From NCBI GenBank assembly GCA_037130265.1, contig JBAXTI010000001.1, positions 325,765 through 389,764 of the forward strand: DNA of 64,000 bases, read 5' to 3'. The stretch comes from a bacterium. GTDB taxonomy: Bacteria; Patescibacteriota; Minisyncoccia; Phycocordibacterales; JBBTRF01. Below, piece by piece: positions 1 to 56,068 of this stretch. The translations under genes were made by a program, and so were the position numbers. Numbering within the stretch: position 1 is the first letter of the stretch; each line of letters begins with the position of its first letter. The notes under the pieces are model-generated. The model saw only the letters and a list, made by a program, of their open reading frames with translations, was not told the DNA's origin and did not search any database.

Positions 1-2099
1 TCACTGTCCAGGCAGGCATTCGTTGGCGTGATATTCAGGATTACATAGATCCGTATGATCTGTCGGTGAAGATTATGCAGACTTACTCCAATTTTACCGT
101 GGGCGGTTCGCTCTCAGTGAATGTTCATGGTCGCTATATCGGTCTCGGCCCGATCATTCTAAGCGTGAAGAGTTTCCGTATTGTTCTTGCTGACGGTCGA
201 GTCATTGAGGCGACCCCGCAGAAGAATAAAGACATATTTTACAGTGCTATCGGCGGCATGGGTGGAATCGGTGTTATTAGTGATGTGACGCTGGAACTCG
301 CAGACAATGTACGGGTTGAGCGAACAAGGACCAAGGTTGCCACCGAAGAGTATTATGAGCATTTCAAAAAGAATATTCGCGACAGCGGCACGGTACTGTT
401 TCACAATGGTGATATGTATCCGCCAGACTTCGAGTATGTCTCTTCGGTGAGTTGGATGGTTACCGACAAACCTGTCACTACTGATAGCCGTCTTATCCCG
501 CGGGCGAAAGACTACTGGTTTGAACGTTTTGCTTGGGTGGTAATGAGTGAGTGGCCGAAGGGTCGATGGGTCCGAGAAAACCTTATCGATCCACTGCTCT
601 ATAGTGGCGAAGCTCCGGTGCATACCCGCAACTATGAAGCGAGCTATGATGTTGCCGAGCTTGAGCCAGAGAAACGCAATGAAACCACGTACGTATTGCA
701 AGAATATTTTGTGCCGGTTGAAAAATTTGATGAGTGGGTTCCGAAGATGTCGAAAGTTTTTAATGACAATGATGTCAATGTGATTAACGTATCCATCCGT
801 CACGCACAGGCGGATTCCGGGGCAGTGCTCGCTTGGGCGCGAAAGGAGAGTTTTGCCTTTGTCGTCTACTACAAGCAGGGCACAGATGTTGGTGCTAAGG
901 CACAAGTGGCGCGTTGGACGAATCAAATGATCGATCAGGTGCTTTCTGTTGGCGGTACTTACTACTTGCCGTATCAGCTCCTGGCAACAAACGACCAAAT
1001 ACATCGAGCTTATCCGCATCTCGTGGAGTATTTTGAGATCAAAAATCATTATGATCCGACTGACAAATTCACCAACAAACTCTGGGATACGTATTACAGC
1101 AAAGAAAAGCTTGAGTACTACAAAAAACGACAAAAGGAGCTCTCTGTCGCAAGTACGACGAAAGAATATTATCGACCTGTCGACAACGCGTATTTGGCAC
1201 TTCCTGAGTGGTATATCGTATACAGTGCAGACGAATATGCGCAGGTGTTGAAGGACGCACTTCCTTCGGATTTTCGGTATTTCGGAGCTATTGGTGATTT
1301 TCGAAGGCAATACAAGGCCGTACTCGATATTGCCTCCACGAGCCCGCACAATAACGATGATTACAAGCTAGTATTGAAGGTTATTGGTCTGAGTTTTGGT
1401 GCTGAAAATATCATAAAGGGTTTGTATGAAAATATAATAGGTGCAGCTTCGGAGTGGGTTGCCGGCAATGTTCAGGTGCCCGAAGACATGTACGCCGCCA
1501 AGGTCGCGGCGGAGTATGCCCGATTCATTTACGACTATCCATGGTACGACTTCCACTACTGGTCTGCACTGAAGGGTGTTTGGGCGGTGAGTGCGGAAAA
1601 AGATTATTCCTTGCTGCAGGATTTCCGCAGACTAGAAAGAAAATTCTTCCTCACTTTTGAATTTGGTGCGAAAGCCTTCTACTCTTCAATCATTGCTTTT
1701 GCAACCCACGCACAATTTGGAGTGCAGGATGATATCGTCTACGCGGTGGTCACTAGAGACGGCGGGAAGACTACTGAATTGATCAGCGCTTCGCACTATC
1801 AGCCATTTACGAGGCTGTTGAATACGGAACTAGATAAAGAGAAGGCGAACAAAGGTTTCCAAGTCTGGGATATCTCCGGTAACAATGTGATCACGCTCAC
1901 TTACAGAGACATGGTCGGCGCCAAAGTACTCACCGGCACCAAGGAAATCGAAAGGGATTCTCAAATCGACGCAATTCAGGACGGCACACCGAGCTTTGTC
2001 GAACGCGTCACTGTCGAGGTACGTGTTCAGGATCTACCTCTTGTTTATCGGACACTGAAAGACAACAATATTCAAGTAGATCACTATTACGACTACTGA
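1..2099 (+). CDS. FAD-binding oxidoreductase (FAD-linked oxidase, ALO/GULO-like); 5' end lies outside the window
   Basis: Reading frame is open from nt 3 with no upstream stop. FAD_binding_4-type motifs GGSLSVNVHGR and GGIGVISDVTLEL occur in mid-domain, so the gene must begin upstream. A ~250-aa C-terminal extension has no recognisable family. Confidence 0.6.
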   Translation, partial: TVQAGIRWRDIQDYIDPYDLSVKIMQTYSNFTVGGSLSVNVHGRYIGLGPIILSVKSFRIVLADGRVIEATPQKNKDIFYSAIGGMGGIGVISDVTLELADNVRVERTRTKVATEEYYEHFKKNIRDSGTVLFHNGDMYPPDFEYVSSVSWMVTDKPVTTDSRLIPRAKDYWFERFAWVVMSEWPKGRWVRENLIDPLLYSGEAPVHTRNYEASYDVAELEPEKRNETTYVLQEYFVPVEKFDEWVPKMSKVFNDNDVNVINVSIRHAQADSGAVLAWARKESFAFVVYYKQGTDVGAKAQVARWTNQMIDQVLSVGGTYYLPYQLLATNDQIHRAYPHLVEYFEIKNHYDPTDKFTNKLWDTYYSKEKLEYYKKRQKELSVASTTKEYYRPVDNAYLALPEWYIVYSADEYAQVLKDALPSDFRYFGAIGDFRRQYKAVLDIASTSPHNNDDYKLVLKVIGLSFGAENIIKGLYENIIGAASEWVAGNVQVPEDMYAAKVAAEYARFIYDYPWYDFHYWSALKGVWAVSAEKDYSLLQDFRRLERKFFLTFEFGAKAFYSSIIAFATHAQFGVQDDIVYAVVTRDGGKTTELISASHYQPFTRLLNTELDKEKANKGFQVWDISGNNVITLTYRDMVGAKVLTGTKEIERDSQIDAIQDGTPSFVERVTVEVRVQDLPLVYRTLKDNNIQVDHYYDY

Positions 2100-2174
2100 T
2101 TCTTTGTTTAAATATCTGACGCGGAATGTTGTAATATCTACTAAGCGATCTGATGAAATAAAATTACGGAAAGG

Positions 2175-4007
2175 TTGTATTATGAGTATATGATCTATAG
2201 TCCAAAGTCGCCTCATTTCGGGCATAAAGCAAAAGCGTATATTTTGGCCCATCGGGTGATGTCGGGGATGGCTGCAGTCGTTGTTGTCGGTCTCGGATAC
2301 TGGACTCTCTCGCCAGCAGCATCGACCGCTACGCAGACCCGCTACGTCCTCGGAGAGGTTTCGAAGAGTACGATTGTCGCCTCTCTTTCCGCTTCCGGCC
2401 AAGTGGCGACGTCGCAGCAGATCGACATCAAGCCAAAGGTTTCCGGAGAGGTGGTGTGGGTAGGAGTGAAGCCAGGCGATACTGTTCGTGCTGGGCAGGC
2501 ACTGGTCGTGCTCGACAATACCGACGCAAAACGTACCTTCCTCGATACCGAACAGTCGTATGCGCAGGCATCGCTTCAGTACCAAAAGGATTCAGCGCAG
2601 GCGCCAATCGATTATCAGAAGGCGACCGAGGCGCTCGATGCTGCGAAAGCCGACCTCGTAACGACCTACAACGACACCTTCAATGCCGTCTCAACGACTT
2701 TTTTGAATCTTCCGACTGCGGTCACTGGCATGTATAACATTTTGTACGGCTACGATCTCAATACTAATAAAAGCCAGTGGAACATCGACGGTTTTAAAGG
2801 TCTATTCACTGATCCTGCGCAGAAATCGAGTGTTGAGAGCTTCGCCGATGCGGCCGAAGCTGATTACAAGCTTGCACAGCCAAAATACGATGCGAGCCTC
2901 GATATGTACAAGAAACTCACTCGATATGCCGATGGTACGTCTCTTGAAAAGCTTCTTGCTAGCGCGATAGAGAGTACGACAGCGGTGTCGCAGGCGTTGC
3001 AGAGTGAGATCAATATGCTCGATATGATTGAGACGTATTCGAAGCAGAACAATCGCCAAGTTGTTTCTTCGGTTGCTTCGATGCAGACAAACGCTCGAAG
3101 CTATCTTTCGACAGCGAATACGCAACTGAGTTCGCTCCTCTCCCGACAAAAAACTCTCGACACTACCAAGAAGGCGATTCGCGACAACGAACGCAGCATT
3201 CAGATCCTCACCATTGCCAACCCGAGTGGCGACAAGCCGATTAGCTTGCAGGCTGCCGGACAAAATCTCGCATCGCAAGCCCGCAGCCTAGAGAAGGCAC
3301 GACAGGATCTGGCCAACTACACTGTCGTCGCGCCATTTGCTGGCAAGATCGCATCCGTAAATGCAGAAAAATTTAATACCGTAGGAAGTGGTACTGCCGT
3401 GGCCACACTGATCACCAACAAGCAGGTCGCAAGTCTTTCGCTGAGCGAAGTGGATGTGGCGAAAATCCAGCTTGGCGACAAAGCAACGCTCACTTTTGAT
3501 GCGATCGACGAACTTTCGCTTACCGGCGCAGTCACGCAGATCGACCTGGTAGGCACGGTTTCTCAAGGTGTCGTGAATTACAAAGTGCAGATTACATTCG
3601 ATATCGATGACACGCGAGTGAAGCCGGGCATGACCGTGAATGCTTCTATTGTCACTGATGTGAAGCAGGATGTACTCACTGTGCCTTCGACAGCGGTGAA
3701 GGTGAGGAACGGAGCGAGCTACGTTCTCGTCTTCGATCCTGCTTTGGCTGATGTTGCAAGGTCGGATAGTGCAGCTGGTGGTGCGGCGACACAGGGTATT
3801 GTTCCTGTCGTTGAACCAAAGCAAGTCACTGTCGTCGTAGGTATTTCCAACGACACCGAAACAGAGATTATTTCCGGTTTGAAGGAGGGGCAGCAGATTG
3901 TCGCGCGTACGATCGCTGGTACGGCTGTGAAAACAGCTGCGCAGACAGCTCCTTCGCTCTTTGGCACTGGTGGCGGTGCAGCCCGTGCGGTCGGTGGCGG
4001 GCGATAG
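2175..4007 (+). CDS. Efflux transporter periplasmic adaptor subunit (HlyD/MacA family) with a very long coiled-coil hairpin
   Basis: N-terminal TM anchor (MAAVVVVGLGYW), lipoyl-like segment (VKPGDTVRAGQALVVLD), ~250-aa helical hairpin and C-terminal beta domains. Sits directly upstream of an ABC ATPase + FtsX permease pair. The true start may be an internal ATG near 2259. Confidence 0.6.
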   Translation: MYYEYMIYSPKSPHFGHKAKAYILAHRVMSGMAAVVVVGLGYWTLSPAASTATQTRYVLGEVSKSTIVASLSASGQVATSQQIDIKPKVSGEVVWVGVKPGDTVRAGQALVVLDNTDAKRTFLDTEQSYAQASLQYQKDSAQAPIDYQKATEALDAAKADLVTTYNDTFNAVSTTFLNLPTAVTGMYNILYGYDLNTNKSQWNIDGFKGLFTDPAQKSSVESFADAAEADYKLAQPKYDASLDMYKKLTRYADGTSLEKLLASAIESTTAVSQALQSEINMLDMIETYSKQNNRQVVSSVASMQTNARSYLSTANTQLSSLLSRQKTLDTTKKAIRDNERSIQILTIANPSGDKPISLQAAGQNLASQARSLEKARQDLANYTVVAPFAGKIASVNAEKFNTVGSGTAVATLITNKQVASLSLSEVDVAKIQLGDKATLTFDAIDELSLTGAVTQIDLVGTVSQGVVNYKVQITFDIDDTRVKPGMTVNASIVTDVKQDVLTVPSTAVKVRNGASYVLVFDPALADVARSDSAAGGAATQGIVPVVEPKQVTVVVGISNDTETEIISGLKEGQQIVARTIAGTAVKTAAQTAPSLFGTGGGAARAVGGGR

Positions 4008-18007: not shown

Positions 18008-21000
18008 ATGAAATCGCCGAAATCACCTTTGGGTGCGCCGAAACCGCTGCCGCCGTACGACCACATGTCCATTGAATCAAAATGGCAAAAGCAGTGGGCG
18101 AAGAAAAAGATATACGCCACCAAGGAAGACGCGAAGAAGGACGCCTTCTATGTCCTCGACATGTTCCCGTATCCGTCCGGTGAAGGTCTCCACGTGGGTC
18201 ATCCGAAGGGCTACATCGCTACTGATGTGGTGTCGCGTATGAAGCGTATGCAGGGTCACTCGGTGCTCCACCCGATGGGCTTTGACGCTTTTGGCCTGCC
18301 AGCAGAAAACTACGCGATCAAAATGAAGACCAACCCGGCCATCGCCGTGGAGAAAAATGTGAAGCGATACAAAGAGCAGCTCGAGATGTTTGGTTTTGAC
18401 TATGATTGGTCACGCGAGATAAATACCACCGACCCCGCATACTATAAATGGACGCAGTGGATCTTTTTGAAGCTGCTCGAAAAAGGTCTCGCATATGAGT
18501 CTCATGAGCCGATCAACTGGTGCCCTTCCTGCAAGACCGGACTTGCCAACGAAGACCTCGAGGATGGCAAGTGTGAGCGCTGCGGCAGTGTCGTGGAGAA
18601 AAAGCCGATTCGCCAGTGGGTGTTGAAAATCACCGATTACGCGGAACGACTTCTTGCGGATTTGGATGCAACCGAAAAGCCTTTAATGATCCGTGACACG
18701 GGTCCAGATGCCGTGCGTCCTGGCATGCCATTAGAGGAGCGAAATGCGGTGGTCTGTGTGGTGAAGCATTGGTCTGAAGACAAGTTCCTCTGCTTGCGCT
18801 GGAAGAGTAATGATTGGCACGGACTCGTAGTCGGCGGCGTCGAAAAGGGCGAGCAACTCGCCGAAGCCGCGGTGCGTGAGGTGCGGGAGGAGACAGGCTA
18901 TCAGAATGTTCGCTTTGTCCGCGAATTCGCCAAGCTCGACTCGCAGTTCTACCAGGCGATCAAAAAGGTCAATCGCTTTGCACATTTCACCGGCGTATAC
19001 CTCGAGCTCACGGATGATGCCTGGAAAGATATTGATGAGAAAGAAAAGGCTCTCCATGAGGTGGTGTGGTTGTCGCGCGCTGAAGTTGCTGGTTTCTTGA
19101 ATCGTCCAGACATGAACTATCTCTGGGATGTCTTTGTCGGCAAAGTAAAGGCCGAGCAGCCCGCACTCGATTGGCCAACCTCTATTAAAGAGCTCCAGCG
19201 AAATTGGATCGGCAAGAGTGACGGTATGATTTTTACCGCACCGGTAAAGGACACAAATCTCACGATTCAGACCTTCTCCGCGCACTTTGAGGCCTGCTAC
19301 GCCGATACGTTTGTCGTGATCGCTCCGGATCATCCATTTTTGTCGACCTTGCTCGAAGGTACAAAAGATAAACAGAAAGTGCTCGATTTTTGTGCGGCTC
19401 TTGTGGCGAAGCGTGCACAGCAGGGTTTTGCAGAAGAAAAAGAATCTGAGGGTATTTTTACTGGCCGATACATTGTCGATCCACTTGGCAACGGTGACCT
19501 GCCCATCTGGGTGGCAAGCTTTGCTTTGGCGGACTACGGAACCGGTATCGTGAAGTGTTCTGCTCACGACGACCGCGACTTTGCTTTTGCGAAGAAGTAC
19601 GGCATTAAGATGAAGACTGTTTTGTATCCAAAAGATGCAGTGCTGGCTGAAAAGGTGAGTGCTCAGGAGGTGTGCTTTGCCGATGCGCAGGCCGGTGTTT
19701 TGAGTGAGCCGAAAGAATTTGCTGGCAAGAACGCACGAAGTGTGCGAAAGGAAATTATTGCTCACCTCGAATCAAAAAACCTCGCCAAAAAGAAAACTAC
19801 CTACCGCCTCCGCGACTGGGTGTTCTCCCGCCAGCGATATTGGGGTGAGCCGATCCCTGTGGTGCATTGTGAGAAGTGCGGAGTCGTTCCTGTCCCAGAA
19901 AAGGACCTTCCTGTGAAGCTCCCGAAAGTGAAATCATATGAGCCGACTGGCACAGGTGAGTCGCCTTTGGCTGCTATCGAGAAGTGGGTGAACACGAAGT
20001 GTCCGAAATGTAGAAGTAAAAAGGTAAACGGCGTGCGTCCGAAAGCTCGGCGCGAAACCAACACCATGCCTCAATGGGCGGGTTCGAGCTGGTACTACTT
20101 GCGATACATGGATGCACAAAATAAAAAAGCTCTGGTCAGTCCTGATGCAGAGCAGTATTGGGCACCTGTAGACCTCTATGTCGGCGGGGCAGAACACGCG
20201 ACTCGACACCTCATCTACGCGCGCTTCTGGCACAAGTTCCTGTACGACATCGGTGCGGTATCGACCACGGAACCTTTCAAGAAGCTCCAACATGTCGGCC
20301 TCATCATGGCAGAGGATGGACGAAAAATGTCGAAGCGCTGGGGTAACGTTGTGAATCCAGACGAAATCATCGCCACCTACGGCGCGGATACTTTGCGCGT
20401 GTACGAAATGTTCATGGGACCTTTTGATCAGCAGATTGCGTGGAACACGAACAGCATGATTGGCTCGCGCCGCTTCTTGGAGCGCGTGTGGAAATTGGTT
20501 GGAAAGGTGCAGGTTGGTTCGGCTGCATCATCAACTGGTGCGTCTTCGACCGAGGTAGAATCCTTACTTCACAAAACTGTCAAAAAGGTGGCGGCGGACA
20601 TTGCGGACATGAAATTCAACACGGCGATCAGTACGCTGATGATCTTGCTCAATGCTTTGGATGAGCAGCCTGCCGGTGTATCTCGCGAGCAGTATGAAAC
20701 CTTCCTAAAACTCCTCGCGCCGTTTGCGCCGCATATGACGGAAGAGCTTTGGGCACAGCTGGGAAATAAAACCACTGTTCATCTCGCGTCGTGGCCGGTG
20801 TGCGATGAGGCAAAGATTCAGGAGGCGAGTCGCAAGATTGGTGTGCAGGTGAACGGCAAGGTCCGTGCGGAATTCGAAGCACCAGGCGGAGCATCGGACG
20901 CCGAACTCGAAAAACTCGCACTCGCGTTGCCAGAAGTACAGAAGTGGGTCGCGGGCAAGCAGGTGAAAAAAGTGATTGTTGTAAAAGGAAAACTAGTGAG

Positions 21001-21019
21001 TGTCGTGGTGGCGGAATAG
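18008..21019 (+). CDS. leuS: Leucine--tRNA ligase with an inserted Nudix hydrolase domain
   Basis: HIGH-type motif HVGHPKGY, Zn-binding CPSCKTGLANEDLEDGKCERCG, RNWIGKSDG, CP1 editing domain, KMSKR (KMSKS) and anticodon-binding/C-terminal domains. Residues ~221-387 carry a perfect Nudix box GGVEKGEQLAEAAVREVREETGY. Confidence 0.9.
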   Translation: MKSPKSPLGAPKPLPPYDHMSIESKWQKQWAKKKIYATKEDAKKDAFYVLDMFPYPSGEGLHVGHPKGYIATDVVSRMKRMQGHSVLHPMGFDAFGLPAENYAIKMKTNPAIAVEKNVKRYKEQLEMFGFDYDWSREINTTDPAYYKWTQWIFLKLLEKGLAYESHEPINWCPSCKTGLANEDLEDGKCERCGSVVEKKPIRQWVLKITDYAERLLADLDATEKPLMIRDTGPDAVRPGMPLEERNAVVCVVKHWSEDKFLCLRWKSNDWHGLVVGGVEKGEQLAEAAVREVREETGYQNVRFVREFAKLDSQFYQAIKKVNRFAHFTGVYLELTDDAWKDIDEKEKALHEVVWLSRAEVAGFLNRPDMNYLWDVFVGKVKAEQPALDWPTSIKELQRNWIGKSDGMIFTAPVKDTNLTIQTFSAHFEACYADTFVVIAPDHPFLSTLLEGTKDKQKVLDFCAALVAKRAQQGFAEEKESEGIFTGRYIVDPLGNGDLPIWVASFALADYGTGIVKCSAHDDRDFAFAKKYGIKMKTVLYPKDAVLAEKVSAQEVCFADAQAGVLSEPKEFAGKNARSVRKEIIAHLESKNLAKKKTTYRLRDWVFSRQRYWGEPIPVVHCEKCGVVPVPEKDLPVKLPKVKSYEPTGTGESPLAAIEKWVNTKCPKCRSKKVNGVRPKARRETNTMPQWAGSSWYYLRYMDAQNKKALVSPDAEQYWAPVDLYVGGAEHATRHLIYARFWHKFLYDIGAVSTTEPFKKLQHVGLIMAEDGRKMSKRWGNVVNPDEIIATYGADTLRVYEMFMGPFDQQIAWNTNSMIGSRRFLERVWKLVGKVQVGSAASSTGASSTEVESLLHKTVKKVAADIADMKFNTAISTLMILLNALDEQPAGVSREQYETFLKLLAPFAPHMTEELWAQLGNKTTVHLASWPVCDEAKIQEASRKIGVQVNGKVRAEFEAPGGASDAELEKLALALPEVQKWVAGKQVKKVIVVKGKLVSVVVAE

Positions 21020-21186: not shown

Positions 21187-22242
21187 ATGAGCACTATTAG
21201 CTTCAAACCAAAACAAGTAACCAAGCGACTGATCGCCGTTTTGCCTGATCGTGCTCAGGAAGTGATCACTGCTCGATACGGTCTTGGTAAAGAGTCAAAG
21301 CGTCTCACTCTCGAAGCGATTGGCAAGAAATACGGCATCACTCGAGAGCGTGTTCGACAGATCGAAAACTACGCGATTGCGAACATTCGCAAGTCTGATG
21401 CATACGGCAAGGAGAAGACGATTTTTGCTGACCTCGAACAGGTGCTTCATTCTCTTGGCGGTGTTGTCGTAGAAGACGATCTCCTTTTGCACATCTCAAA
21501 AGACGTGTCTCTTCAGAATCACCTCAACTTTCTTTTGGTGCTCGGTGATACCTTCCAGCGACAGAAAGAAGACGAACATTTCAATCATCGATGGCATGTA
21601 AACGAGGAGCTTTCAAAGCAGGTTGAGGCATCTCTCCAGAAGCTCTACAAGAGCATTTCAAATGATGACCTCCTTTCTGAGTCAGAAATGGTCAACAAGT
21701 TTCTCGAACACCTCAAGGACGTTTCTGAGAAGCACAAGAATGAAGAGGTGGTCCGCCGATGGCTCAAGCTCTCCAAGAAAGTGGCGAAAAATCCACTTGG
21801 CGAATGGGGTCTCGCTGATTCTCCAAATATCAAGACCAAGGGTATGCGAGACTACGCATTCCTCGTTATCCGCAAGCACGGTTCACCAATCCACTTCACT
21901 CAGGTAGCGAAGAACATTGAAAAGATCTTCAATATCAAGGCTCATGTTGCAACCTGCCACAATGAATTGATCAAGGATCCACGTTTCGTACTCGTTGGTC
22001 GCGGTCTCTATGCACTCGCAGAATGGGGCTATATGAGCGGTGTCGTGAAGGATGTGATCAAGAAGATTATCGAAAGAAGCGGCCCGTTGACCAAGGGCGA
22101 GATCATTGAAAAGGTACTCAAAGAGCGATATGTGAAAGAGAACACTATCATGGTGAACCTCCAGAACCCGAAGCATTTCAAGAAAGACAAGGAAGGGAAG
22201 TATTCTGTGGTGATTAGTTTGATCCCAGCAGCAAAGGTATAA
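21187..22242 (+). CDS. DNA-binding protein with an N-terminal sigma-70 region-4-type HTH and a C-terminal HARE-HTH-like winged helix
   Basis: N-terminus ARYGLGKESKRLTLEAIGKKYGITRERVRQIE matches sigma-70 region 4. C-terminus HFTQVAKNIEKIF...DPRFVLVGRGLYALAEWGY resembles the HARE-HTH of RNAP delta/ASXL. Confidence 0.5.
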   Translation: MSTISFKPKQVTKRLIAVLPDRAQEVITARYGLGKESKRLTLEAIGKKYGITRERVRQIENYAIANIRKSDAYGKEKTIFADLEQVLHSLGGVVVEDDLLLHISKDVSLQNHLNFLLVLGDTFQRQKEDEHFNHRWHVNEELSKQVEASLQKLYKSISNDDLLSESEMVNKFLEHLKDVSEKHKNEEVVRRWLKLSKKVAKNPLGEWGLADSPNIKTKGMRDYAFLVIRKHGSPIHFTQVAKNIEKIFNIKAHVATCHNELIKDPRFVLVGRGLYALAEWGYMSGVVKDVIKKIIERSGPLTKGEIIEKVLKERYVKENTIMVNLQNPKHFKKDKEGKYSVVISLIPAAKV

Positions 22243-29187: not shown

Positions 29188-31053
29188 ATGAAATCCCACG
29201 ACATTCGCAGCAGATTCCTTACTTTTTTTGAGAAACACGGACACGCCATCATCCCGTCGGCTTCGCTTGTGCCAGAAAATGACCCGACCGTGCTCTTCAA
29301 CACCGCGGGTATGCAGCCGCTCGTGCCGTATCTCATGGGCGGCAAACATCCAGCTGGTACCCGATTGGCGGACTCGCAGAAGTGTGTGCGCACCGGCGAC
29401 ATCGACGATATCGGCGACAATACTCACTGCACCTTTTTCGAAATGCTCGGCAACTGGTCGCTCGGCGACTATTTCAAAGAAGATGCGATCAAGTGGAGCT
29501 ACGAATTCCTCACTAGCAAGACCGAAGGGCTCGGCCTCGACCCGGCGCGACTCTATGTGACCGTGTTTGAAGGCGACGAAAAGGCTGGCGTGCCACGCGA
29601 CACGGAGGCATTTGAGATTTGGAAGAAAGTGGGCATGCCCGAGCACCGTATCTATTTCAAGGGTGCTGACGCCAACTGGTGGCCAGCGGTGAAGAAGGGC
29701 CCAAGCGGCGGAGTGCGCGACGGCTGGACTGGCCCTACTGGTCCTTGCTCCGAAATGTTTTATGACGTGACCGAAAAAGGTCTTGGCGATTTGACTATTG
29801 ATCAATACAACGCGGCCGACGAAAAGCAGCAGGTGGTAGAGATCTGGAATGATGTGTTTATGGAGTTCGAGAAGAAGGATGGCAAAATCCTCGGCAAGCT
29901 CGCGCAGAAGAACGTCGACACCGGCGCCGGCCTCGAGCGACTCTGTATGGTGCTCCAGCGACTCGAGAATCCAAAAGTTCAGAGCGTGTTTGATACGGAT
30001 CTTTTCGATACGATCATGGGGAAGATTGGAGAGTTTTCAGCAGTTGGCTCTGCCGTGGCGCCCGAGACTCCAGCAACCATCCGTGCGAAGCGCATCGTCG
30101 CCGACCATGTTCGCAGCGCCGTCTTTTTGATCAGTGACGGTGTGCAGCCTTCAAATACCGATCAAGGATATATTTTGCGACGTTTGTTGCGACGCGCAGT
30201 GCGTTTTGCTGACGTGCTTGGTATGAAGCCGGGCTCACTTTTCTGGCTTGCGGGGGCGATTATCGAAAAATACGGACCCGTATACGGCAATCTTGTCGAG
30301 AAGTCGGAACACATCAGGAAGGAGATTGATAAAGAAGAAGGAAAGTTTCGTGAGACGCTCAAAAATGGTCTTAAGGAGTTTGAAAAAGGTGTGGATGCCT
30401 TTACCTTGTTTTCTTCATACGGATTTCCTTTGGAGTTGACTGTTGAGCTCGCTAAAGAGTCCGGAAAAAAGGTAGACGTCGCAGATTTTGAAGCAAAAAT
30501 GAAAGCCCATCAGGAACTCTCACGCGCAGGCGCAGCCCAGAAGTTCAAGGGCGGCCTTGCCGATGCCGATGAGATGTCAGTGAAATATCACACTGCGACA
30601 CACCTGCTCCATCAGGCGCTCCGAGACGTGCTCGGCACTCATGTACAACAGAAGGGAAGCAACATCACTGCTGAGCGTCTCCGTTTCGACTTCGCGCATA
30701 CCGCGAAGATGACGGATGACGAGAAAAAGCGGGTTGAGGCTATTGTGAATGAGAAGATCGCAGCAGCACTGCCGATGCAGGTAGCCGAACTCCCAAAAGC
30801 CGAAGCGGAAACTCTCGGTGCACTCCATTTCTTTGGCGACAAATATGGCGATAAGGTGACTGTCTATTATATTGGTGGGCAGGGTTCCGGCGTCGACGCG
30901 GTAAAAACTGCGTACTCAAAAGAATTCTGTGGAGGTCCTCACGTGAAAAATACGATCGAGCTTGCGGGACCAAACGGCAGTTGGAAATTTAAGATTGCAA
31001 AAGAAGAGGCGGTCTCTGCTGGTGTTCGACGCATCAAGGCGGTATTGGCATAG
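29188..31053 (+). CDS. alaS: Alanine--tRNA ligase, short form lacking the C-Ala domain
   Basis: Class II catalytic core (FNTAGMQPL, GNWSLGDYFK), tRNA-recognition mid-domain and editing-domain motifs HTATHLLH / CGGPHV. The protein ends shortly after the editing domain at 621 aa. Confidence 0.85.
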   Translation: MKSHDIRSRFLTFFEKHGHAIIPSASLVPENDPTVLFNTAGMQPLVPYLMGGKHPAGTRLADSQKCVRTGDIDDIGDNTHCTFFEMLGNWSLGDYFKEDAIKWSYEFLTSKTEGLGLDPARLYVTVFEGDEKAGVPRDTEAFEIWKKVGMPEHRIYFKGADANWWPAVKKGPSGGVRDGWTGPTGPCSEMFYDVTEKGLGDLTIDQYNAADEKQQVVEIWNDVFMEFEKKDGKILGKLAQKNVDTGAGLERLCMVLQRLENPKVQSVFDTDLFDTIMGKIGEFSAVGSAVAPETPATIRAKRIVADHVRSAVFLISDGVQPSNTDQGYILRRLLRRAVRFADVLGMKPGSLFWLAGAIIEKYGPVYGNLVEKSEHIRKEIDKEEGKFRETLKNGLKEFEKGVDAFTLFSSYGFPLELTVELAKESGKKVDVADFEAKMKAHQELSRAGAAQKFKGGLADADEMSVKYHTATHLLHQALRDVLGTHVQQKGSNITAERLRFDFAHTAKMTDDEKKRVEAIVNEKIAAALPMQVAELPKAEAETLGALHFFGDKYGDKVTVYYIGGQGSGVDAVKTAYSKEFCGGPHVKNTIELAGPNGSWKFKIAKEEAVSAGVRRIKAVLA

Positions 31054-42655: not shown

Positions 42656-44680
42656 ATGAAAAAAAGCATTTCCTGGCTTCTTGCAATTGCTCTGTCTTTG
42701 GTCATCGTGTTTTTATGGAGAACAAGTACTCCAGCTGCCGTCGAGGCTCAAACTCTCTCAACTCCGTCAGTCCTCGCTGGCCATGCCTGGTCGTCCAATA
42801 TTGGTTGGGTGAGTTTCAATGGATCAAATGATTCGGGAGGCGGAAGTTCTCATGCGGTAAACAGAGACGCTGCCGGTAATCTCACTGGCTACGCGTGGTC
42901 TTCCAATATTGGTTGGATCAAATTTGGTGGCTTGGACACCGCAACAATACCGACAGTCTCTGCAGCACCTGGTACGCAGCAAATAAATGCGAAAGTGGAC
43001 ACCTCAACCGGACGACTCATCGGCTGGGCTCGGGCGTGTGCGGGGATGAGTGATCCGGTGGGGTGTACGGATGCAGTTCAATCTACTCAGGTCACCGCGG
43101 GAACGAATGGTTTGTCGACATCGTCATCACAAATAATTTTGAATTGGCAGATTGGACTTTTTGAACAGCAGGTTTATGTCACGAATAATACGTCTACCAC
43201 CTTACCCGGACTCCGTATTACATTGGAATCATCACTTCCTTCTGGCACAACTCTTTACTTTGCAAATACTGATAGTAACGGCAAATTTTATTTACAGCAT
43301 AACTATCCCATCTCTCCCGGTCAGACGGTACATATTGTAGCTGAATATTTGAACTTGCTTAGAAATATGCCCCAGACACCTTTGAATTTTTCTGCACAGG
43401 CATTAAATCAAGCCATTTTAGAACCCGTTTTGCCAGTAGGTAGTACTTTGATTAATACAATTCCTTCAAGCTCCATTTTATATCCCAATAACGCTTGGAC
43501 CACCCTTCCACACAAGTTGATATTTTGGAGTACATCGAGTCTGCTATTAGGTGAAAAAATAGCAATACAGTATAGCGATGATAACGGGGTTACTTGGCCT
43601 ACTTATTTTGGTAAGGGGATGAGTATACATGTAATTGATGCACCGACGCCGAATGTGGTCGATTATGGTGCTCCCCATACCATGGTTCCACCTCCGGAAA
43701 ATCGAATGTATAAGGTCTATAAATTACCTGTGGATACTTATCCTGCAAGAGATGGGGGATCGACATATAATCCTAGTTTAACTACTTTATTGACACTTCC
43801 CTCTACTATCGACCCTCGCGGAGGCTGGCGCGGTTGGATTAGCTTGAGTAGCACTGCTGATTCTGGAAATTACGGCGTCCAGCTCGAATCTAACGGCCAA
43901 TATTCTGGATATGCATGGGGATCAGATGTCATCGGTTGGATGCAGTTTACCCCGACAGTGCCCGGTGGCGGGGGTGGTGGGCCAACCTGCCCCGGTGTCT
44001 GCGAAACCGCCAAAACACTTTCCCTCACCTGCGCCACACGTGTAGCCGAGAGCACGGCCGGAAGCTGGACATGGACCGCTACCATCTCGAGTGTCTTTAA
44101 GGGTACTGCCCCATATACATTCAGCTGGATACCTCCGGGTGGCACAACCTCGACACAACAGCCTTTGTTCACTCCAACCACAGGTGCACCTATCAGCGCT
44201 TCTTTCACCACTCCCGCAACCTCTGAACAATTCCCAATGGTCTCGGTCGCAGATACACAAGGATACACCTCCCAACCCATCGCCTGTTCATCTGTTCCTG
44301 TACAGGTACTCCTACCTAGTGTTGAGTTCGGCGGAGTTGCAATTCCAAGTACCAATTCTTCCGAACCAACCACCCCATCTTCGTATCGAAACGCATTCAG
44401 TATGCAACGAGGAAAGGTGGTTGCGCTGAGATATGATGTCTCTGGCGGAAACACAGACGACACCTATCGCATTACGCAATCATTTCAGGGTGTAACAGGT
44501 GATTTGCTCCCAAGCACTGCTGTTCTTTCTGGGGTGCAAACCAAAAAAACCGCTGCACTCAACACAAACGGAGTCTATACCTACACCCTCAAGATCTTCT
44601 CGAAGGATGCCGTTAATCCTAAGACCACTTCGGTAGTCACCGTCACAGTTCGCAATGACCCAGACCTCAATGAATTCTAG
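42656..44680 (+). CDS. Large secreted/cell-surface protein with G(Y/H)AWSSNIGW(I/V) repeats
   Basis: Signal anchor MKKSISWLLAIALSLVIVFLW, three copies of the GxAWSSNIGW motif, a Gly6 run, a Cys-containing segment and Thr/Ser/Pro-rich regions. No enzymatic domain is recognised. Confidence 0.5.
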   Translation: MKKSISWLLAIALSLVIVFLWRTSTPAAVEAQTLSTPSVLAGHAWSSNIGWVSFNGSNDSGGGSSHAVNRDAAGNLTGYAWSSNIGWIKFGGLDTATIPTVSAAPGTQQINAKVDTSTGRLIGWARACAGMSDPVGCTDAVQSTQVTAGTNGLSTSSSQIILNWQIGLFEQQVYVTNNTSTTLPGLRITLESSLPSGTTLYFANTDSNGKFYLQHNYPISPGQTVHIVAEYLNLLRNMPQTPLNFSAQALNQAILEPVLPVGSTLINTIPSSSILYPNNAWTTLPHKLIFWSTSSLLLGEKIAIQYSDDNGVTWPTYFGKGMSIHVIDAPTPNVVDYGAPHTMVPPPENRMYKVYKLPVDTYPARDGGSTYNPSLTTLLTLPSTIDPRGGWRGWISLSSTADSGNYGVQLESNGQYSGYAWGSDVIGWMQFTPTVPGGGGGGPTCPGVCETAKTLSLTCATRVAESTAGSWTWTATISSVFKGTAPYTFSWIPPGGTTSTQQPLFTPTTGAPISASFTTPATSEQFPMVSVADTQGYTSQPIACSSVPVQVLLPSVEFGGVAIPSTNSSEPTTPSSYRNAFSMQRGKVVALRYDVSGGNTDDTYRITQSFQGVTGDLLPSTAVLSGVQTKKTAALNTNGVYTYTLKIFSKDAVNPKTTSVVTVTVRNDPDLNEF

Positions 44681-51079: not shown

Positions 51080-54000
51080 TTGCTGTTTTGTGCCATTTCT
51101 CTGGCACCTTCCATGCTTGATATTCTCAACACAATTGGGGCCGCCATCATCACCGCTTTCTCTAGCATCGCCCTATTGTTTTCCGCCTCCACAGCACCAG
51201 CTGCAGTAGTGGTCTCCCAGCAGGGAACCACCGCATCTTCTGTTTCCTCGTCCACCCTCGCCGTCACCACCGACTCGGGTACCGCCTCCACCACCGTTTT
51301 TAACACATACATCACGCAGCCCGTCATCGAACGCATTGTCGAGCGAGCAGGGGAGACTGCGGCCACCTCTGGCGACTCCTCCACCTTCGTCACCCAACAA
51401 GAATTCACCCAGAAGCTCAACACCCTCTCTGCCACCCTCGGCCGCTCCCTGTATGGCAACTCATACCCAGCACCAAGCACCAACTACGGTGGTGGTGGTG
51501 TGCAGAACATGATCTCGTTGTCCAACAAGATTGATCAACTCACCAACACCGTCATCACCACGCCCACCATCACCGGTGCCACCATCAATGGCGGTACCAT
51601 CTCTGCCACCACTGCTGCCTTCTCTGGTGACGCCACCCTCTCCTCCACCACCGCCTCCTCCCTCACCGTCACCGGCCTATCATCTTTCGCAGGTCTCACC
51701 ACCCTCGGATACGCCTCCACCACCCAAATCGGCTCAACTGGCTCGGCATACTTTGCCACCAGTGGCGGCTCAGTGGGTATCGGCACCACCTCTCCCTCAG
51801 ACCTCCTTGCAGTGAATGGTGCGGTATACCTGGCCGCCACCACCCCTGCTGTCACTTCCAACCGCCTGTACAACAGCTCAGGTGATCTATACTGGGGAGG
51901 CAACCTCGTGTCAGGCGCTGCTGTCGGCACCTGGACATCGACTTCAGGCAATGTATATCGTCCGACGGGGAATGTGGGGATCGGTACTACCTCTCCATGG
52001 CGTGCACTTTCCGTGAACGGTTCCTCTGACCTTGGCAACAATGCTTTGGCAGGATCCTTCACCTCTACGACCACAACAGCTACCTCTACGTTTGCCGGAG
52101 GTTTCTCTGCCGCGAGCTCTACTTTCAACATCTTGAATCACAATGGGTATGTGGGGATTGGGACGACTACTCCAAAAAGAATGTTGCATCTTTCTAGTGT
52201 TACCTCAGCCACGGATCAGATGATTCGTGCTGAAAGTTCTGTTTCAACTAACGGTGCAACTATTCTGACCATGAATGATGTTGGCGATATATTTCAATTC
52301 GTAATGAATGGTTCAAATATTGGGAACGGATTTGTTTCAACAACAAACAACGCAGCCAGATTGCAATCTACAGGTGCTGGTGGAATGATTCTTAATACCA
52401 CTAACGCTAGTGCACCTATTGTTTTTGGAACAGGAGGCGTTGCGCTTGCAAATGAAAGGATGAGGCTCACAAGTACTGGTAATCTTGGTATCGGTACGTC
52501 CACTCCCGGCCAGAAACTTTCGGTGGCGGGGGACATTTTGGGGAACAATATTATCGGCTCGTATTTCACGGCGACTTCGACGATCGCATCTTCGACTCTT
52601 TCTACCGGAGGGCTCGCAATCGGCACGTCGCAGTTTGTGGTACAGCAGAATAGTGGGCGAGTGGGCATTGGTATCGCAAATCCAACCGAGAAACTGCACG
52701 TAACTGGCTTGAGGACAAACAATTCTGCCAGAATTCTTGTTACTGATGAAAATGGGGCGATAGCTCGACTGAATGCAGATGGGTATAACAACGGCACTGA
52801 TGCTGCTGCCAATCTTTTCTTGTCTGGAGATGGAAATCAGGGAATTAAAATGGTTTCCGGCGGGGTGTCCTCTTATATAACAGCAGGTTCAACAGGTGTG
52901 AGTATTACTGGTGCGGGAACGGGCTACGGCCTAACTCTTGCTGGGCCAACTAACACTCTCGGAGGAACGCTAAGTACCGACTCGAGCGGTTCGAGTGTTT
53001 GGGTGCCGCTCACAATTACTGCGAATGATAGCCAGGCAACAAACGTACTTTCAGTCGGCAAATCATCTTCAGCCGGTTCTTATTTATTGATGAATTCTTC
53101 GGGTAATCTTGGCATCGGCACCACCACCCCCGGCCAGAAGCTTTCGGTGGCGGGGGACATTTTGGGGAACAATATTATCGGCTCGTATTTCACGGCGACT
53201 TCGAGTACGGCGACTTCCACCTTCTTGGGCGGAGCGACCTTTGCGACTGGTGGGGGAAATGTGGGGATTGGGACGGCGACAACGGATGCACTACTTAGTG
53301 TGGTTAGTCCAAACAATGCGGTCGATACAATTTTATCAGTACGAACAAATAATTTATCGCAAGGTGTCGGGATTGGATACTCTTCAATAAGAGCGATTGG
53401 TTCAAGTGCAAACGTTGATTTGACAATAGCTGCCAAAGGATCAGGTACTGCGTATCTTGGTGATTCTGGAAACGGCTTTTTTGTGAGCCCGAGTGTTGCT
53501 GGAGCAAGTATAAGTACAAATGGTATAACCAGATTCAGTCTAATTGACGGTGTTGCAGCATTTGCGACGGATGGTTTCTCTATAACCGCAAACAGCGCAA
53601 CAGCCGCGACTATTATGGGCGGCAACGTCGGCATCGGAACAGCGAGTCCAGCTGACAAATTACAAGTAACAGGTGGAAATATTTTACTGGACGCTGGCGG
53701 TTCTATACAATTTGGTTCAACTGGTTTAAATAGCGTCGGTATTAAAGGTTATTGGGCTGGTTCCGGTAGCTACATGCACGTGTACTCAGTGGGGGATATT
53801 CGTAACTACTTGGATGCTAATAATAACTCCATTAACAATTTTGAAATCTATGGAAACGTAGCCGAAGGAACAACGGAGGGAGCCTTATTTACAGTTCAAG
53901 ATACAGGAAACGTCGGCATCGGCACCACCACCCCATACGCAAAACTTTCTCTTAGCGCCAACCACACCGGTACTCACAACCCAACACTCTTTGCTATCGC

Positions 54001-56068
54001 CTCAAGTACCGGTGGCACCTCAACCACCACCGCCTTTACGGTGTTGGCGAATGGAAATGTGGGCATCGGGACGTCGAGTCCGGCAGACAAGCTCGATGTG
54101 GCTGGATTTATAAAAACTGCGAAAATCCCTTTTGCAACCAATACTGCCTTAACAGCGGTAACAACAAGAGCCATGTCTTCTGTGGAATATAAAGGCAAGC
54201 TTTACGTTGGAACTTCAGATGGCAATGTGTATGTCTACGATGGATCAACATGGACATTTTCTTATAACAATGGATCGGGCCCAGTAATCGGGTTAGTGGT
54301 TTACAATGGAAATCTGTATGCAGCTTTTCAGAATGTGGGTGTAATTTCTTTTAATGGAAGTACTTGGGGCTCAGCCTTAGGGTCGCTGCCAACTTATATC
54401 TATCAAATGGCTGTTTATAATAGCAAGCTTTACGTGTCTATTTATGATGGTGGTGCAAGTCAAGTGAAGATGTATACCTTTGACGATACTTCTTGGGTTG
54501 AGTTGACAAATATTCCGTATTATCACAGCGCGGATCAGTATGGCATTAGAACCCTAGCTGTCTATAACGGGAAATTGTACGGTGGAAATGGTCTAGGAGA
54601 GGTATACGCTTTTGATGGTTCAAGCTGGGCACTCTTGACTGACTTAGGAGCATTTAGCATTACAACTTTTGGGACATACAAAGGGAAATTGTTTGCAAGT
54701 GGTGGTGGCAATGTGTATTCATTTGATGGAAGCACGTGGTCCTCATCTTTATACTCAACCGGATATCAGATAAACAGTTTTGTTGAATATGCTGGAAAGC
54801 TATATATTGGGGCTGCCAACGGAAATCCAGCTATTTATATGGTTTCCTACGACGGAAACTCGTTTACCGCAGAGACATCTGTGAATGCTTCGTTTACTGA
54901 TTATATAACTTCAGGTACGGTGTATAACGGAAAATTATATATGACAGGATCGTCGGCTCTAATGTATTCCGAACGTCTCGAATCGCAACTTGCGAAGGCG
55001 TATGATCCGACCCTAGTTCCATTCAATGAGCAGTATCAGAATTTCACCAAGAATCTTACCGTGACGGGCAACGTCGGCATCGGCACCACTTCTCCCGCCG
55101 CCCGCCTCTCCGTCACCCAATCCGCCAACACCAACGCCGGCGGCCTCTGGCTCGCCGGCACTGATGGCGACTATCGCGCCATCTACATGTCCGACACCAG
55201 CGGTACCCTCTCCTTCAACGGTGGAGACAATGCGGGCACCCTCAATACCGCGAGCCTCAACTCTGCCGGAGCCTGGATCAACGCTTCAGACCGCTCATAC
55301 AAGGAGAACATCGTTGATTTCTCCACCAAATACACCCTCGATGACATCATGAAGCTCGAACCTCGCTTCTACACCATGAAAGGCACCGGCAAGCCACAAA
55401 TCGGCTTCATCGCTCAAGAAGTGAAGCTGGTTATCCCTGAAGTGGTGGAAGGCGTGGACGGCTCCATGGGTGTCTCCTACGGCAACATGGTGGCCATTGC
55501 AATCCAGGGGATTAAGGAGTTGAATACGACCCTGCGCGAAGTGGGAACAAAGATCGCAGGGTTTGCGGATAAGATCATGTCAAGAGAAATCGTTGTTTCT
55601 GAAAGAATCTGCATCAACACCACCTGTGTCACTGAAGATCAGCTGAAATTACTCCTGAAAAATGCCGCTGCTCTCGCTTCAACTCCGGCTTCGACCCCGA
55701 CCCAAAGCTCGTCTGGCGATACCGCCACCACAACACTCGACACCACCGCCCCAGTCATTACACTCAATGGCAATAACCCTGCTCAAATAGAGAAGAATGC
55801 CAGCTATCTTGATCTCGGTGCGACCGTTACAGATAACGTGAGTCTGAACCTTGGCTATCTGACCACAGGTGACCAGATCGATACCACCGTCCCAGGGACT
55901 TACACCGTGACTTACACCGCCACCGACGTTGCCGGCAACACGGCTACCGCTTCGCGCACGGTGATTGTCTCTGATCCTGCGGCGCCAGCGCCCGTTGACC
56001 CTGCACCCACCGAGAGTGCCCCAGCTCCAGTCGACCCTGCACCAACACCCATTGAAGTAGCACCGTAG
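51080..56068 (+). CDS. Giant (1662 aa) surface protein: fibre-like Gly/Thr/Ser repeats, beta-propeller, Peptidase_S74 intramolecular-chaperone domain, Ig-like domain and Pro-rich tail
   Basis: N-terminal TM/signal anchor (the start may be the ATG at 51113). More than ten G(N/Y)VGIGTTSP(x)KL(S/H)V motifs. A YNGKLY/FDGS(S/T)W repeat set forms a ~6-7-blade propeller. S74 motif SDRSYKENIV...GFIAQEV...PEVV...IQGIKEL. Ig-like segment GTYTVTYTATDVAGNTATASRTVIV. Tail PAAPAPVDPAPTESAPAPVDPAPT. Confidence 0.6.
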   Translation: MLFCAISLAPSMLDILNTIGAAIITAFSSIALLFSASTAPAAVVVSQQGTTASSVSSSTLAVTTDSGTASTTVFNTYITQPVIERIVERAGETAATSGDSSTFVTQQEFTQKLNTLSATLGRSLYGNSYPAPSTNYGGGGVQNMISLSNKIDQLTNTVITTPTITGATINGGTISATTAAFSGDATLSSTTASSLTVTGLSSFAGLTTLGYASTTQIGSTGSAYFATSGGSVGIGTTSPSDLLAVNGAVYLAATTPAVTSNRLYNSSGDLYWGGNLVSGAAVGTWTSTSGNVYRPTGNVGIGTTSPWRALSVNGSSDLGNNALAGSFTSTTTTATSTFAGGFSAASSTFNILNHNGYVGIGTTTPKRMLHLSSVTSATDQMIRAESSVSTNGATILTMNDVGDIFQFVMNGSNIGNGFVSTTNNAARLQSTGAGGMILNTTNASAPIVFGTGGVALANERMRLTSTGNLGIGTSTPGQKLSVAGDILGNNIIGSYFTATSTIASSTLSTGGLAIGTSQFVVQQNSGRVGIGIANPTEKLHVTGLRTNNSARILVTDENGAIARLNADGYNNGTDAAANLFLSGDGNQGIKMVSGGVSSYITAGSTGVSITGAGTGYGLTLAGPTNTLGGTLSTDSSGSSVWVPLTITANDSQATNVLSVGKSSSAGSYLLMNSSGNLGIGTTTPGQKLSVAGDILGNNIIGSYFTATSSTATSTFLGGATFATGGGNVGIGTATTDALLSVVSPNNAVDTILSVRTNNLSQGVGIGYSSIRAIGSSANVDLTIAAKGSGTAYLGDSGNGFFVSPSVAGASISTNGITRFSLIDGVAAFATDGFSITANSATAATIMGGNVGIGTASPADKLQVTGGNILLDAGGSIQFGSTGLNSVGIKGYWAGSGSYMHVYSVGDIRNYLDANNNSINNFEIYGNVAEGTTEGALFTVQDTGNVGIGTTTPYAKLSLSANHTGTHNPTLFAIASSTGGTSTTTAFTVLANGNVGIGTSSPADKLDVAGFIKTAKIPFATNTALTAVTTRAMSSVEYKGKLYVGTSDGNVYVYDGSTWTFSYNNGSGPVIGLVVYNGNLYAAFQNVGVISFNGSTWGSALGSLPTYIYQMAVYNSKLYVSIYDGGASQVKMYTFDDTSWVELTNIPYYHSADQYGIRTLAVYNGKLYGGNGLGEVYAFDGSSWALLTDLGAFSITTFGTYKGKLFASGGGNVYSFDGSTWSSSLYSTGYQINSFVEYAGKLYIGAANGNPAIYMVSYDGNSFTAETSVNASFTDYITSGTVYNGKLYMTGSSALMYSERLESQLAKAYDPTLVPFNEQYQNFTKNLTVTGNVGIGTTSPAARLSVTQSANTNAGGLWLAGTDGDYRAIYMSDTSGTLSFNGGDNAGTLNTASLNSAGAWINASDRSYKENIVDFSTKYTLDDIMKLEPRFYTMKGTGKPQIGFIAQEVKLVIPEVVEGVDGSMGVSYGNMVAIAIQGIKELNTTLREVGTKIAGFADKIMSREIVVSERICINTTCVTEDQLKLLLKNAAALASTPASTPTQSSSGDTATTTLDTTAPVITLNGNNPAQIEKNASYLDLGATVTDNVSLNLGYLTTGDQIDTTVPGTYTVTYTATDVAGNTATASRTVIVSDPAAPAPVDPAPTESAPAPVDPAPTPIEVAP
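52478..52580. repeat. Internal direct repeat copy 1 (~100 bp; encodes GNLGIGTSTPGQKLSVAGDILGNNIIGSYFTATS)
   Basis: Near-identical at the nucleotide level to 53102..53205, inside the giant gene. Confidence 0.7.
53102..53205. repeat. Internal direct repeat copy 2 (~100 bp)
   Basis: About 95% identical to 52478..52580 and in the same reading frame. Confidence 0.7.

Follow-up and report, generated by a model that had tools for sequence, protein, structure and literature searches.

Can a leucyl-tRNA synthetase (LeuRS) carry a complete second enzyme within its own polypeptide chain, and what would such an enzyme do there? This question is raised by the leuS gene of a Patescibacteriota bacterium (Minisyncoccia; Phycocordibacterales; JBBTRF01), located in a 64,000-nucleotide stretch of contig JBAXTI010000001.1 (assembly GCA_037130265.1, positions 325,765 to 389,764 of the forward strand), which is the whole stretch analysed here and is further referred to as the window. 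Results of our analysis show that this gene encodes a bacterial LeuRS which looks functional and which carries an autonomous domain of Nudix fold at the tip of a helical hairpin, between the zinc knuckle ZN1 and the linker of the connective polypeptide 1 (CP1) editing domain. A preliminary description of the locus had proposed a complete, in-frame Nudix domain inside LeuS, and Pfam, the TIGR00396 model, the alignment with Thermus thermophilus LeuRS and structure models all bear this out.

A Nudix domain within leucyl-tRNA synthetase

The synthetase body of the protein is readily recognised. The TIGR00396 (leuS_bact) equivalog hidden Markov model (HMM) matches it with 967.2 bits (cut-off 548.4) in two stretches that are split by the insert, and Pfam assigns to it the class I core (tRNA-synt_1), the editing domain PF13603 (aa 398-588) and the anticodon-binding domain PF08264, Anticodon_1 (aa 850-961). 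The class I signatures HVGH (aa 62-65) and KMSKR (aa 773-777) are conserved across the 120 relatives described below, and the arrangement is bacterial, with CP1 placed after ZN1 (CPSC/CERC, aa 172-192) and the anticodon-binding domain present. The motifs listed in the preliminary description (HVGH, CPSC, CERC, the Nudix box, RNWIG and KMSKR) were all found, those of LeuRS being in frame on both sides of the insert. The true start of leuS possibly lies up to about 14 codons downstream of that given in Table 1; its relatives are of 988-991 aa.

The boundaries of the insert are sharp. The HMMER alignment with T. thermophilus LeuRS (1H3N) stops at residue 220 of the window protein (T. thermophilus residue 208) and restarts at residue 386 (T. 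thermophilus residue 209). Because T. thermophilus residues 208 and 209 are adjacent in the solved LeuRS, aa 221-385 represent a clean insertion (nt 18668-19162), which places the earlier estimate of its extent, 18668-19168, within two codons of the actual one. In insert-free close relatives (803-841 aa), the junction reads '...LLADLD/ALDWP...', with the slash at the insertion point. The NUDIX family PF00293 matches aa 248-360 with 49.0 bits when the whole protein is searched and with 52.8 bits when the insert is taken alone, as compared to the gathering threshold of 21.1.

The AlphaFold2 model of the insert, based on an alignment of 32 inserts, has a predicted local distance difference test score (pLDDT) of 90.9 and a predicted template modelling score (pTM) of 0.84, and shows the strand-helix-strand order and the alpha/beta/alpha sandwich of the Nudix fold. 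In the full-length model (pLDDT 80.5, pTM 0.68), the Nudix block (pLDDT 85-94) is among the best-predicted parts, while the scores of its linkers are lower. The predicted catalytic Nudix residues are all intact in the window copy, and the near-invariant K319, N322, R323, E346 and W354 are candidate phosphate-binding or catalytic residues. The insert is constrained as strongly as the LeuRS core: in the comparison with the closest genome (91% amino acid identity), the ratio of nonsynonymous to synonymous substitution rates (dN/dS) is 0.026 in the insert, as compared to 0.027 in the remainder of LeuRS, these ratios being approximate with dS near saturation.

Table 1. Features of the leuS gene of the window and of the module inserted in its product.
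Feature	Position (nt)	Strand	Remarks
leuS open reading frame, bacterial-type LeuRS with insert	18008..21019	+	1003 aa + stop, no interruption
HIGH motif (HVGH, aa 62-65)	18191..18202	+	invariant in the alignment of relatives
ZN1 zinc knuckle (CPSC 172-175 ... CERC 189-192)	18521..18583	+	motif and T. thermophilus alignment
Inserted module, aa 221-385	18668..19162	+	N-terminal linker 221-240, Nudix fold ~241-376, flexible C-terminal linker 377-385
Nudix box GGVEKGEQLAEAAVREVREETGY, aa 276-298	18833..18901	+	fits G-x5-E-x7-R-E-U-x-E-E-x-G-U at every specified position
X-loop region: aromatic pair F314-Y315 (16-17 residues past box), near-invariant K319-x2-N322-R323	18941..18976	+	alignment
Subfamily-conserved E346 (91%) and W354 (100%), C-terminal half of Nudix fold	19034..19069	+	alignment
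CP1 editing domain, aa 398-588	19199..19771	+	Pfam and alignment; RNWIG = aa 398-402
KMSKS motif (KMSKR, aa 773-777)	20324..20338	+	motif
Anticodon-binding domain, aa 850-961	20555..20890	+	Pfam

The LeuRS body itself departs from the T. thermophilus enzyme at two further points. The leucine-specific domain is absent: nothing just upstream of the KMSKS motif (aa 769-773; nt ~20310-20325) corresponds to T. thermophilus residues 581-636. The CP1 domain keeps the GTG (aa 510-513) and AHDDRD (aa 519-524) motifs, and its threonine-rich motif, canonically FTTRPDT as in T. thermophilus and E. coli, is replaced by FSAHFEA (aa 423-429; nt 19274-19294). Three CP1 types, TTRPDT, SAHFEA and NSVPQT, occur in LeuRS of Paceibacteria, and the specificity or competence of editing may differ within this clade.

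Artefacts and mobile elements

An assembly chimera or an undetected frameshift that fused a separate Nudix gene to leuS can be considered effectively excluded. The reading frame of the window is continuous on both sides of the insert, the junction is precise to the residue, and the dN/dS of the insert equals that of the core. Over 100 independent assemblies, from the four sources NCBI, JGI, ENA and Logan, have the same in-frame architecture, and LeuRS-Nudix is therefore not a chimera. The only locus that speaks for such an artefact is L043 of the GTDB set (507-3217), in which a 164-aa Nudix open reading frame (ORF) and the beginning of a 760-aa LeuS frame overlap on the same strand. Either the assembly is frameshifted here or this LeuRS is split naturally. 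No promoter- or terminator-like site that would split leuS was found on the + strand, and an antisense ORF overlapping leuS (18731-19765), with no family match, was treated as spurious. The claim of a genuine insertion rather than two genes thus withstood both of the outcomes that had been named as fatal to it, namely a lack of a Nudix profile match and a chimera.

An intein or another mobile insertion was considered and rejected, as no match to Hint/splicing or homing-endonuclease Pfam families was found in the LeuRS, and the repeats flanking the insert are only of chance level (10-13 nt).

Distribution of the module in LeuRS of Patescibacteria

The preliminary description had asked whether LeuS of other Patescibacteria carry the insert. 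They do, and the picture is broader than expected, including two Nudix sites, multiple copies, other hydrolase modules and a prolyl-tRNA synthetase (ProRS). No record of an identical 1003-aa protein was found, but most of the 120 best LeuRS relatives in a collection of 5.8 billion proteins carry PF00293, at lengths from 803 to 1558 aa, and where the names of sources are given, these are Patescibacteria (Parcubacteria/Paceibacterota, Taylor-, Nomura-, Wolfe- and Pacebacteria). A search of the same index with the insert alone returned three free-standing Nudix proteins and no LeuRS, which reflects a limit of the word index; embedded copies were recovered by whole-protein and exhaustive HMMER searches. 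Each GTDB species was represented by one genome in a pattern scan, which gave 62 loci. Of these, 57 lie within LeuRS-sized reading frames, and essentially all 62 come from metagenome-assembled genomes with labels of Patescibacteria type, a few of the labels being evidently automatic.

Mapping of each sequence onto a profile of insert-free LeuRS defined three insertion sites. Site A, which is that of the window protein (profile position 208), is filled in 79 of the 120 relatives, with a Nudix domain, two Nudix domains, a Nudix domain and a PF06821 serine hydrolase, a serine hydrolase alone, or Ham1. Site B lies within CP1, past the AHDxRD motif, and site C within the ZN2 knuckle, where the relatives scanned with Pfam have a HAD_2 domain and others have shorter inserts of ~175-197 aa. 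By HMM count, 166 Nudix domains are present in 105 of 121 LeuRS. Their box residues are kept nearly throughout (E16 in 165, E19 in 162, E20 and G22 in all 166), and the box is fully canonical in 124. A coherent variant lineage with E7 changed to Q and R15 changed to A, T or M comprises 33 of the 166 domains, retains E16, E19 and E20, and may represent a binding-only or altered-mechanism paralogue. Members of this lineage are also found as free-standing proteins (P0001-P0003, L058, L060, L061 and L063) and, in many relatives, as tandem partners of the canonical Nudix at site A.

Copies at sites A and B of one protein are only 15-40% identical, and in 120 of 125 cases the nearest neighbour of a copy comes from the same site. 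It follows that both insertions are old. A recent intragenic duplication between the two sites was rejected on the ground of the same identity values. Some insert-free relatives retain linker-like residues at the junction, which suggests a secondary loss of the insert. The LeuRS-Nudix design is an old, vertically inherited feature of Paceibacteria-type Patescibacteria.

The largest LeuRS (P0010, P0013, P0035, P0040, P0050 and P0065; 1477-1558 aa) are nearly twice the normal size. In those scanned with Pfam, three Nudix stretches are accompanied by HAD_2 in the ZN2 loop (P0013) or by a PF06821 serine hydrolase (P0040 and P0050). In P0053 and P0055, an insert of ~210 aa replaces Nudix at site A; that of P0053, scanned with Pfam, is Ham1-like (ITPase family).

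Occurrence of the module outside LeuRS

An exhaustive HMMER search of 1.84 billion representatives gave 143 proteins at E<=1e-30, and the best 150 representatives were classified. LeuRS sequence is contained in 105 of them, 33 are free-standing Nudix proteins (126-231 aa; canonical box in 19), and the remaining 12 include a CP1 fragment with Nudix, tandem Nudix proteins and one class II ProRS. All identified non-free hosts of the module among these 150 are synthetases. In the class II ProRS of 641-674 aa (P0256, P0272-P0275), the module lies between the anticodon-binding and C-terminal domains. This arrangement recurs in five clusters, whose insert-free relatives are labelled Nanoarchaeota or Woesearchaeota (DPANN archaea), and one of the ProRS copies is 42% identical to the window insert over 153 residues, linker included. 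At one ProRS-Nudix locus (L065, 5593-7524), a tRNA_bind (PF01588) gene is located immediately upstream. Altogether, the sequences indicate that the module was inserted independently about three times, at sites A and B of LeuRS and in ProRS, each time into a synthetase.

Possible substrates

Certain residues past the Nudix box have been related to substrate class: according to Dunn et al. (1999), as summarised in PMC5389931, a position ~17 residues past the box is Tyr in hydrolases of diadenosine polyphosphates (ApnA) and Pro in ADP-ribose diphosphatases, while SQPWPFPQS marks NADH diphosphatases. In the window insert, Y315 lies 17 residues past Y298 and fits the ApnA marker, which is correlative only; the same position is Tyr in 77 and Phe in 38 of 122 embedded domains (Tyr or Phe in 115). 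The post-box sequence QNVRFVREFAKLDSQFYQAIKKVNR has neither the Pro nor the SQPWPFPQS signature, and none of the NudC, NudE and NudF models comes near its cut-off. The equivalog models of RppH (PRK00714; 24-28 bits vs. 116-118) and MutT (TIGR00586; 18.1 bits vs. 97.9) are also below cut-off.

The nearest characterised relatives by profile and fold (AvrM14, lupin Ap4A hydrolase, CT771, Dcp2, Rv2985/MutT1, Ndx1, DIPP1 and 3GRN) are enzymes that cut 5'-5' polyphosphate bridges or nucleoside triphosphates (NTPs). The matches to ApnA hydrolases are weak (1F3Y, E 1e-3 and 4e-4; CT771, E 5.5e-4) and mostly span the box. Ham1, which represents another NTP pyrophosphatase family, occupies the same LeuRS site in relatives. 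These three lines, namely the X-loop aromatic pair, the nearest relatives and the shared site of Ham1, weakly suggest a substrate of the ApnA/NTP class rather than of the ADP-ribose or NADH classes.

Function of the inserted module

We tentatively favour, with less than even confidence, the explanation that the insert is an active pyrophosphohydrolase which, being placed beside the adenylation site, would clear by-products of the synthetase or aberrant NTPs by proximity. The Nudix domain would act as a Mg2+-dependent pyrophosphohydrolase tethered beside the aminoacylation site, its likeliest substrates being nucleotide polyphosphates that arise from the aminoacyl-adenylate (diadenosine tetraphosphate, Ap4A, as well as Ap3A, Ap4N and similar compounds) or aberrant NTPs. 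Synthetases are a main cellular source of Ap4A and related dinucleoside polyphosphates (ApnN), and Nudix enzymes degrade both (PMC10148737, PMC7705103). Clearance of Ap4A and a new proofreading step had both been raised as possibilities in the preliminary description. Coupling would rely on proximity and fixed stoichiometry rather than on a channel, because the same module appears to work from two LeuRS loops and one ProRS linker. In organisms with tiny genomes, one polypeptide would thus combine a synthetase and a clean-up enzyme for its by-products.

Several observations weigh against this explanation. One argument against a geometry-specific coupling is that the module occurs in two LeuRS loops and in one to three copies, and that its loss can leave linker scars behind. 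HAD and serine-hydrolase modules, unrelated to Nudix, are also found in LeuRS, all in the insertion-tolerant connective-polypeptide region, so that LeuRS may simply be a permissive carrier. Every characterised Nudix equivalog of NCBIfam scores far below its cut-off, the similarity to any characterised Nudix is weak (E ~1e-4), the function of the best structural match, 2AZW, is listed as undetermined, and the Tyr rule of the X-loop is a correlation. In the literature searched, synthesis of Ap4A specifically by LeuRS or ProRS was not found. In the five genomic contexts examined, free-standing Nudix copies do not adjoin synthetase genes, except at L043, a probable frameshifted LeuS, and the association with synthetases rests on only about three independent insertion events.

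Many of these observations would equally be expected if the Nudix domain were a common housekeeping pyrophosphohydrolase, with the specificity of MutT, RppH or another enzyme, that had settled in a loop tolerant of insertions. It would have no tie to leucylation and would gain expression and stability from an essential, constitutively expressed host protein in a minimal genome. Such a passenger, although doubtful when taken by itself, is nearly as likely as proximity-based clearance. All insertion sites lie within the connective-polypeptide region between the Rossmann-fold halves, a classical insertion hot-spot of class Ia synthetases, and that region also received HAD_2 (ZN2 loop), Ser_hydrolase and Ham1 (site A). 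The variable copy number at two sites, the free-standing versions with a canonical box and the insert-free close relatives, which show that loss is possible, point in the same direction. A random choice of carrier is nevertheless unlikely, because every identified non-free host in the top 150 is a synthetase, including the unrelated class II ProRS from a different domain of life, while long retention at two sites with a dN/dS equal to that of the core is compatible with either model. An activity directed to RNA, that is, removal of 5' pyrophosphate or of non-canonical caps (Np4A, NAD) in the manner of RppH, Dcp2 or AvrM14, appears improbable. Recruitment could then be due to the ability of synthetases to make Np4-capped species or to placement on the translation machinery, but the RppH equivalog score is far below cut-off and an RNA-binding extension is not evident in the 165-aa module. 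Since decapping and ApnA hydrolysis overlap chemically, this possibility partly merges with the clearance of synthetase by-products.

There is similarly little to be expected from a non-catalytic Nudix that would bind a nucleotide (Ap4A, ADP-ribose or ppGpp) or tRNA and regulate LeuRS allosterically. Non-enzymatic Nudix domains are known (PMC5389931), and the variant lineage, with its 33 embedded and several free-standing copies, might be of this kind; the window copy, however, has a perfect box, and even the variant lineage keeps the three metal-binding glutamates almost without exception, which is most simply explained by catalysis. Least probable of these functions is proofreading or self-protection, in which the insert would hydrolyse non-cognate aminoacyl-adenylates or adenylate-mimicking LeuRS inhibitors and so offset the altered CP1 site. 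It would agree with the lack of the canonical threonine-rich motif in the window CP1 and with the position of the insert next to ZN1, which flanks the synthetic site in LeuRS structures. Nevertheless, Nudix inserts accompany each of the three CP1 types, TTRPDT among them, and SAHFEA is also present in insert-free relatives, so that acquisition of Nudix in step with the loss of the threonine-rich motif was rejected for want of correlation with CP1 type. Moreover, aminoacyl-AMP is an acyl-phosphate and not a nucleoside diphosphate-X, and to our knowledge it belongs to no substrate class of Nudix enzymes.

A wider phenomenon is also conceivable, which we put forward as a rather doubtful proposal. 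Synthetases of ultra-small symbionts (bacteria of the Candidate Phyla Radiation and, for ProRS, DPANN archaea) would be platforms that carry their own enzymes of by-product and damage control, a previously unrecognised, physically coupled control of translational quality or of alarmones. LeuRS would accrete up to five hydrolase modules (one to three Nudix, HAD, serine hydrolase and Ham1), which together would clear Ap4A/ApnN, pyrophosphate/AMP, aberrant NTPs and perhaps mis-esterified products where they are made. The LeuRS-Nudix of the window would be the simplest member of such platforms.

Novelty and significance

No published description of a LeuRS-Nudix or other synthetase-Nudix architecture was found in full-text literature, the search covering few subscription journals, and in a clan-wide Nudix review, the words 'tRNA', 'synthetase' and 'ligase' do not occur. 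This is consistent with the earlier impression that the architecture is undescribed. The finding thus concerns a familiar enzyme in which an embedded catalytic module, apparently not described before, recurs across a major uncultured radiation, in sequences that are already public and Pfam-annotated. Behind the plain labels of these genes, 'leucine--tRNA ligase' or 'class I tRNA ligase family protein', up to ~700 additional residues of enzymatic domains remain hidden.

Few enzymes have been studied as intensively as synthetases, and domains accreted to them have repeatedly exposed new biology, such as editing and Ap4A signalling. An intact pyrophosphohydrolase in LeuRS, kept across an uncultured radiation and acquired in parallel by a class II synthetase, would amount to a natural experiment bearing on the question whether dinucleoside polyphosphates made by synthetases are harmful by-products or signals. 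It also illustrates the packing of housekeeping chemistry into essential proteins by genome-reduced symbionts.

Other genes of the window

Directly downstream of leuS, a gene at 21187-22242 (+) encodes a 351-aa protein with Sigma70_r4 and a weak HARE-HTH match, an unusual regulator-like architecture. The alanyl-tRNA synthetase (AlaRS) encoded at 29188-31053 (+) (621 aa; tRNA-synt_2c and tRNA_SAD) is shorter than usual among bacterial AlaRS and carries no additional inserted domain. The 1662-aa ORF at 51080-56068 (+), with Peptidase_S74 (endosialidase chaperone) and a bacterial surface Ig-like domain near the C-terminus, encodes a large surface or tail-fibre-like protein. Two further ORFs, of 677 aa (66-2099, +) and 674 aa (42656-44680, +), have no Pfam match at E<=1e-5.

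Comparison with known systems

In comparison with bacterial LeuRS of known structure (T. thermophilus 1H3N/2BYT and E. coli 4AQ7), the HIGH and KMSKS motifs, ZN1, CP1 after ZN1, ZN2 and the anticodon-binding and C-terminal domains of the window protein align throughout (E 4e-190). The T. thermophilus enzyme differs in lacking the 165-aa Nudix between its residues 208 and 209, in having the leucine-specific domain and in its threonine-rich motif. Other synthetases with accreted domains, such as the CP1 of Leu/Ile/ValRS, the INS of bacterial ProRS and the GNAT of IleRS-GNAT (NF040702), follow the same principle of an added catalytic module. These modules, however, act on aminoacyl-tRNA, adenylate or inhibitors, their folds are unrelated to Nudix, and none of them is a nucleotide pyrophosphohydrolase.

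With regard to the module itself, the best structural match, 2AZW (an Enterococcus faecalis MutT/Nudix protein and structural-genomics target), is free-standing, shares 17-18% identity and permits no functional transfer. Mycobacterium smegmatis MutT1 and M. tuberculosis Rv2985, in which Nudix is joined to a histidine-phosphatase, have another partner domain and 19-20% identity (NCBIfam MutT1, 24-28 bits vs. 475). The asymmetric Ap4A/ApnA Nudix hydrolases (NUDT2, lupin 1F3Y, Aquifex 3I7U, Chlamydia CT771, Thermus Ndx1 and E. coli RppH/YgdP) act in trans on a product of synthetases, are among the best sequence and fold matches, and have in common with the insert the Nudix fold and box as well as the X-loop aromatic residue or Tyr ~17 residues past the box. 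They differ in being free-standing, and their similarity to the insert is marginal (E ~1e-3 to 1e-4). In NadM-Nudix (NMN adenylyltransferase/Nudix), a HIGH-motif Rossmann-fold adenylyltransferase is linked covalently to a Nudix domain whose substrate is a nucleotide related to the product of the transferase (PMC7824862). The match of the insert to its NCBIfam model, NF003787, is weak and far below cut-off, and NadM-Nudix is a terminal fusion rather than a loop insertion, has a Nudix of ADP-ribose type and is not a synthetase. The closest conceptual precedents for the LeuRS-Nudix of the window are NadM-Nudix and those Ap4A hydrolases which degrade products of synthetases in trans.

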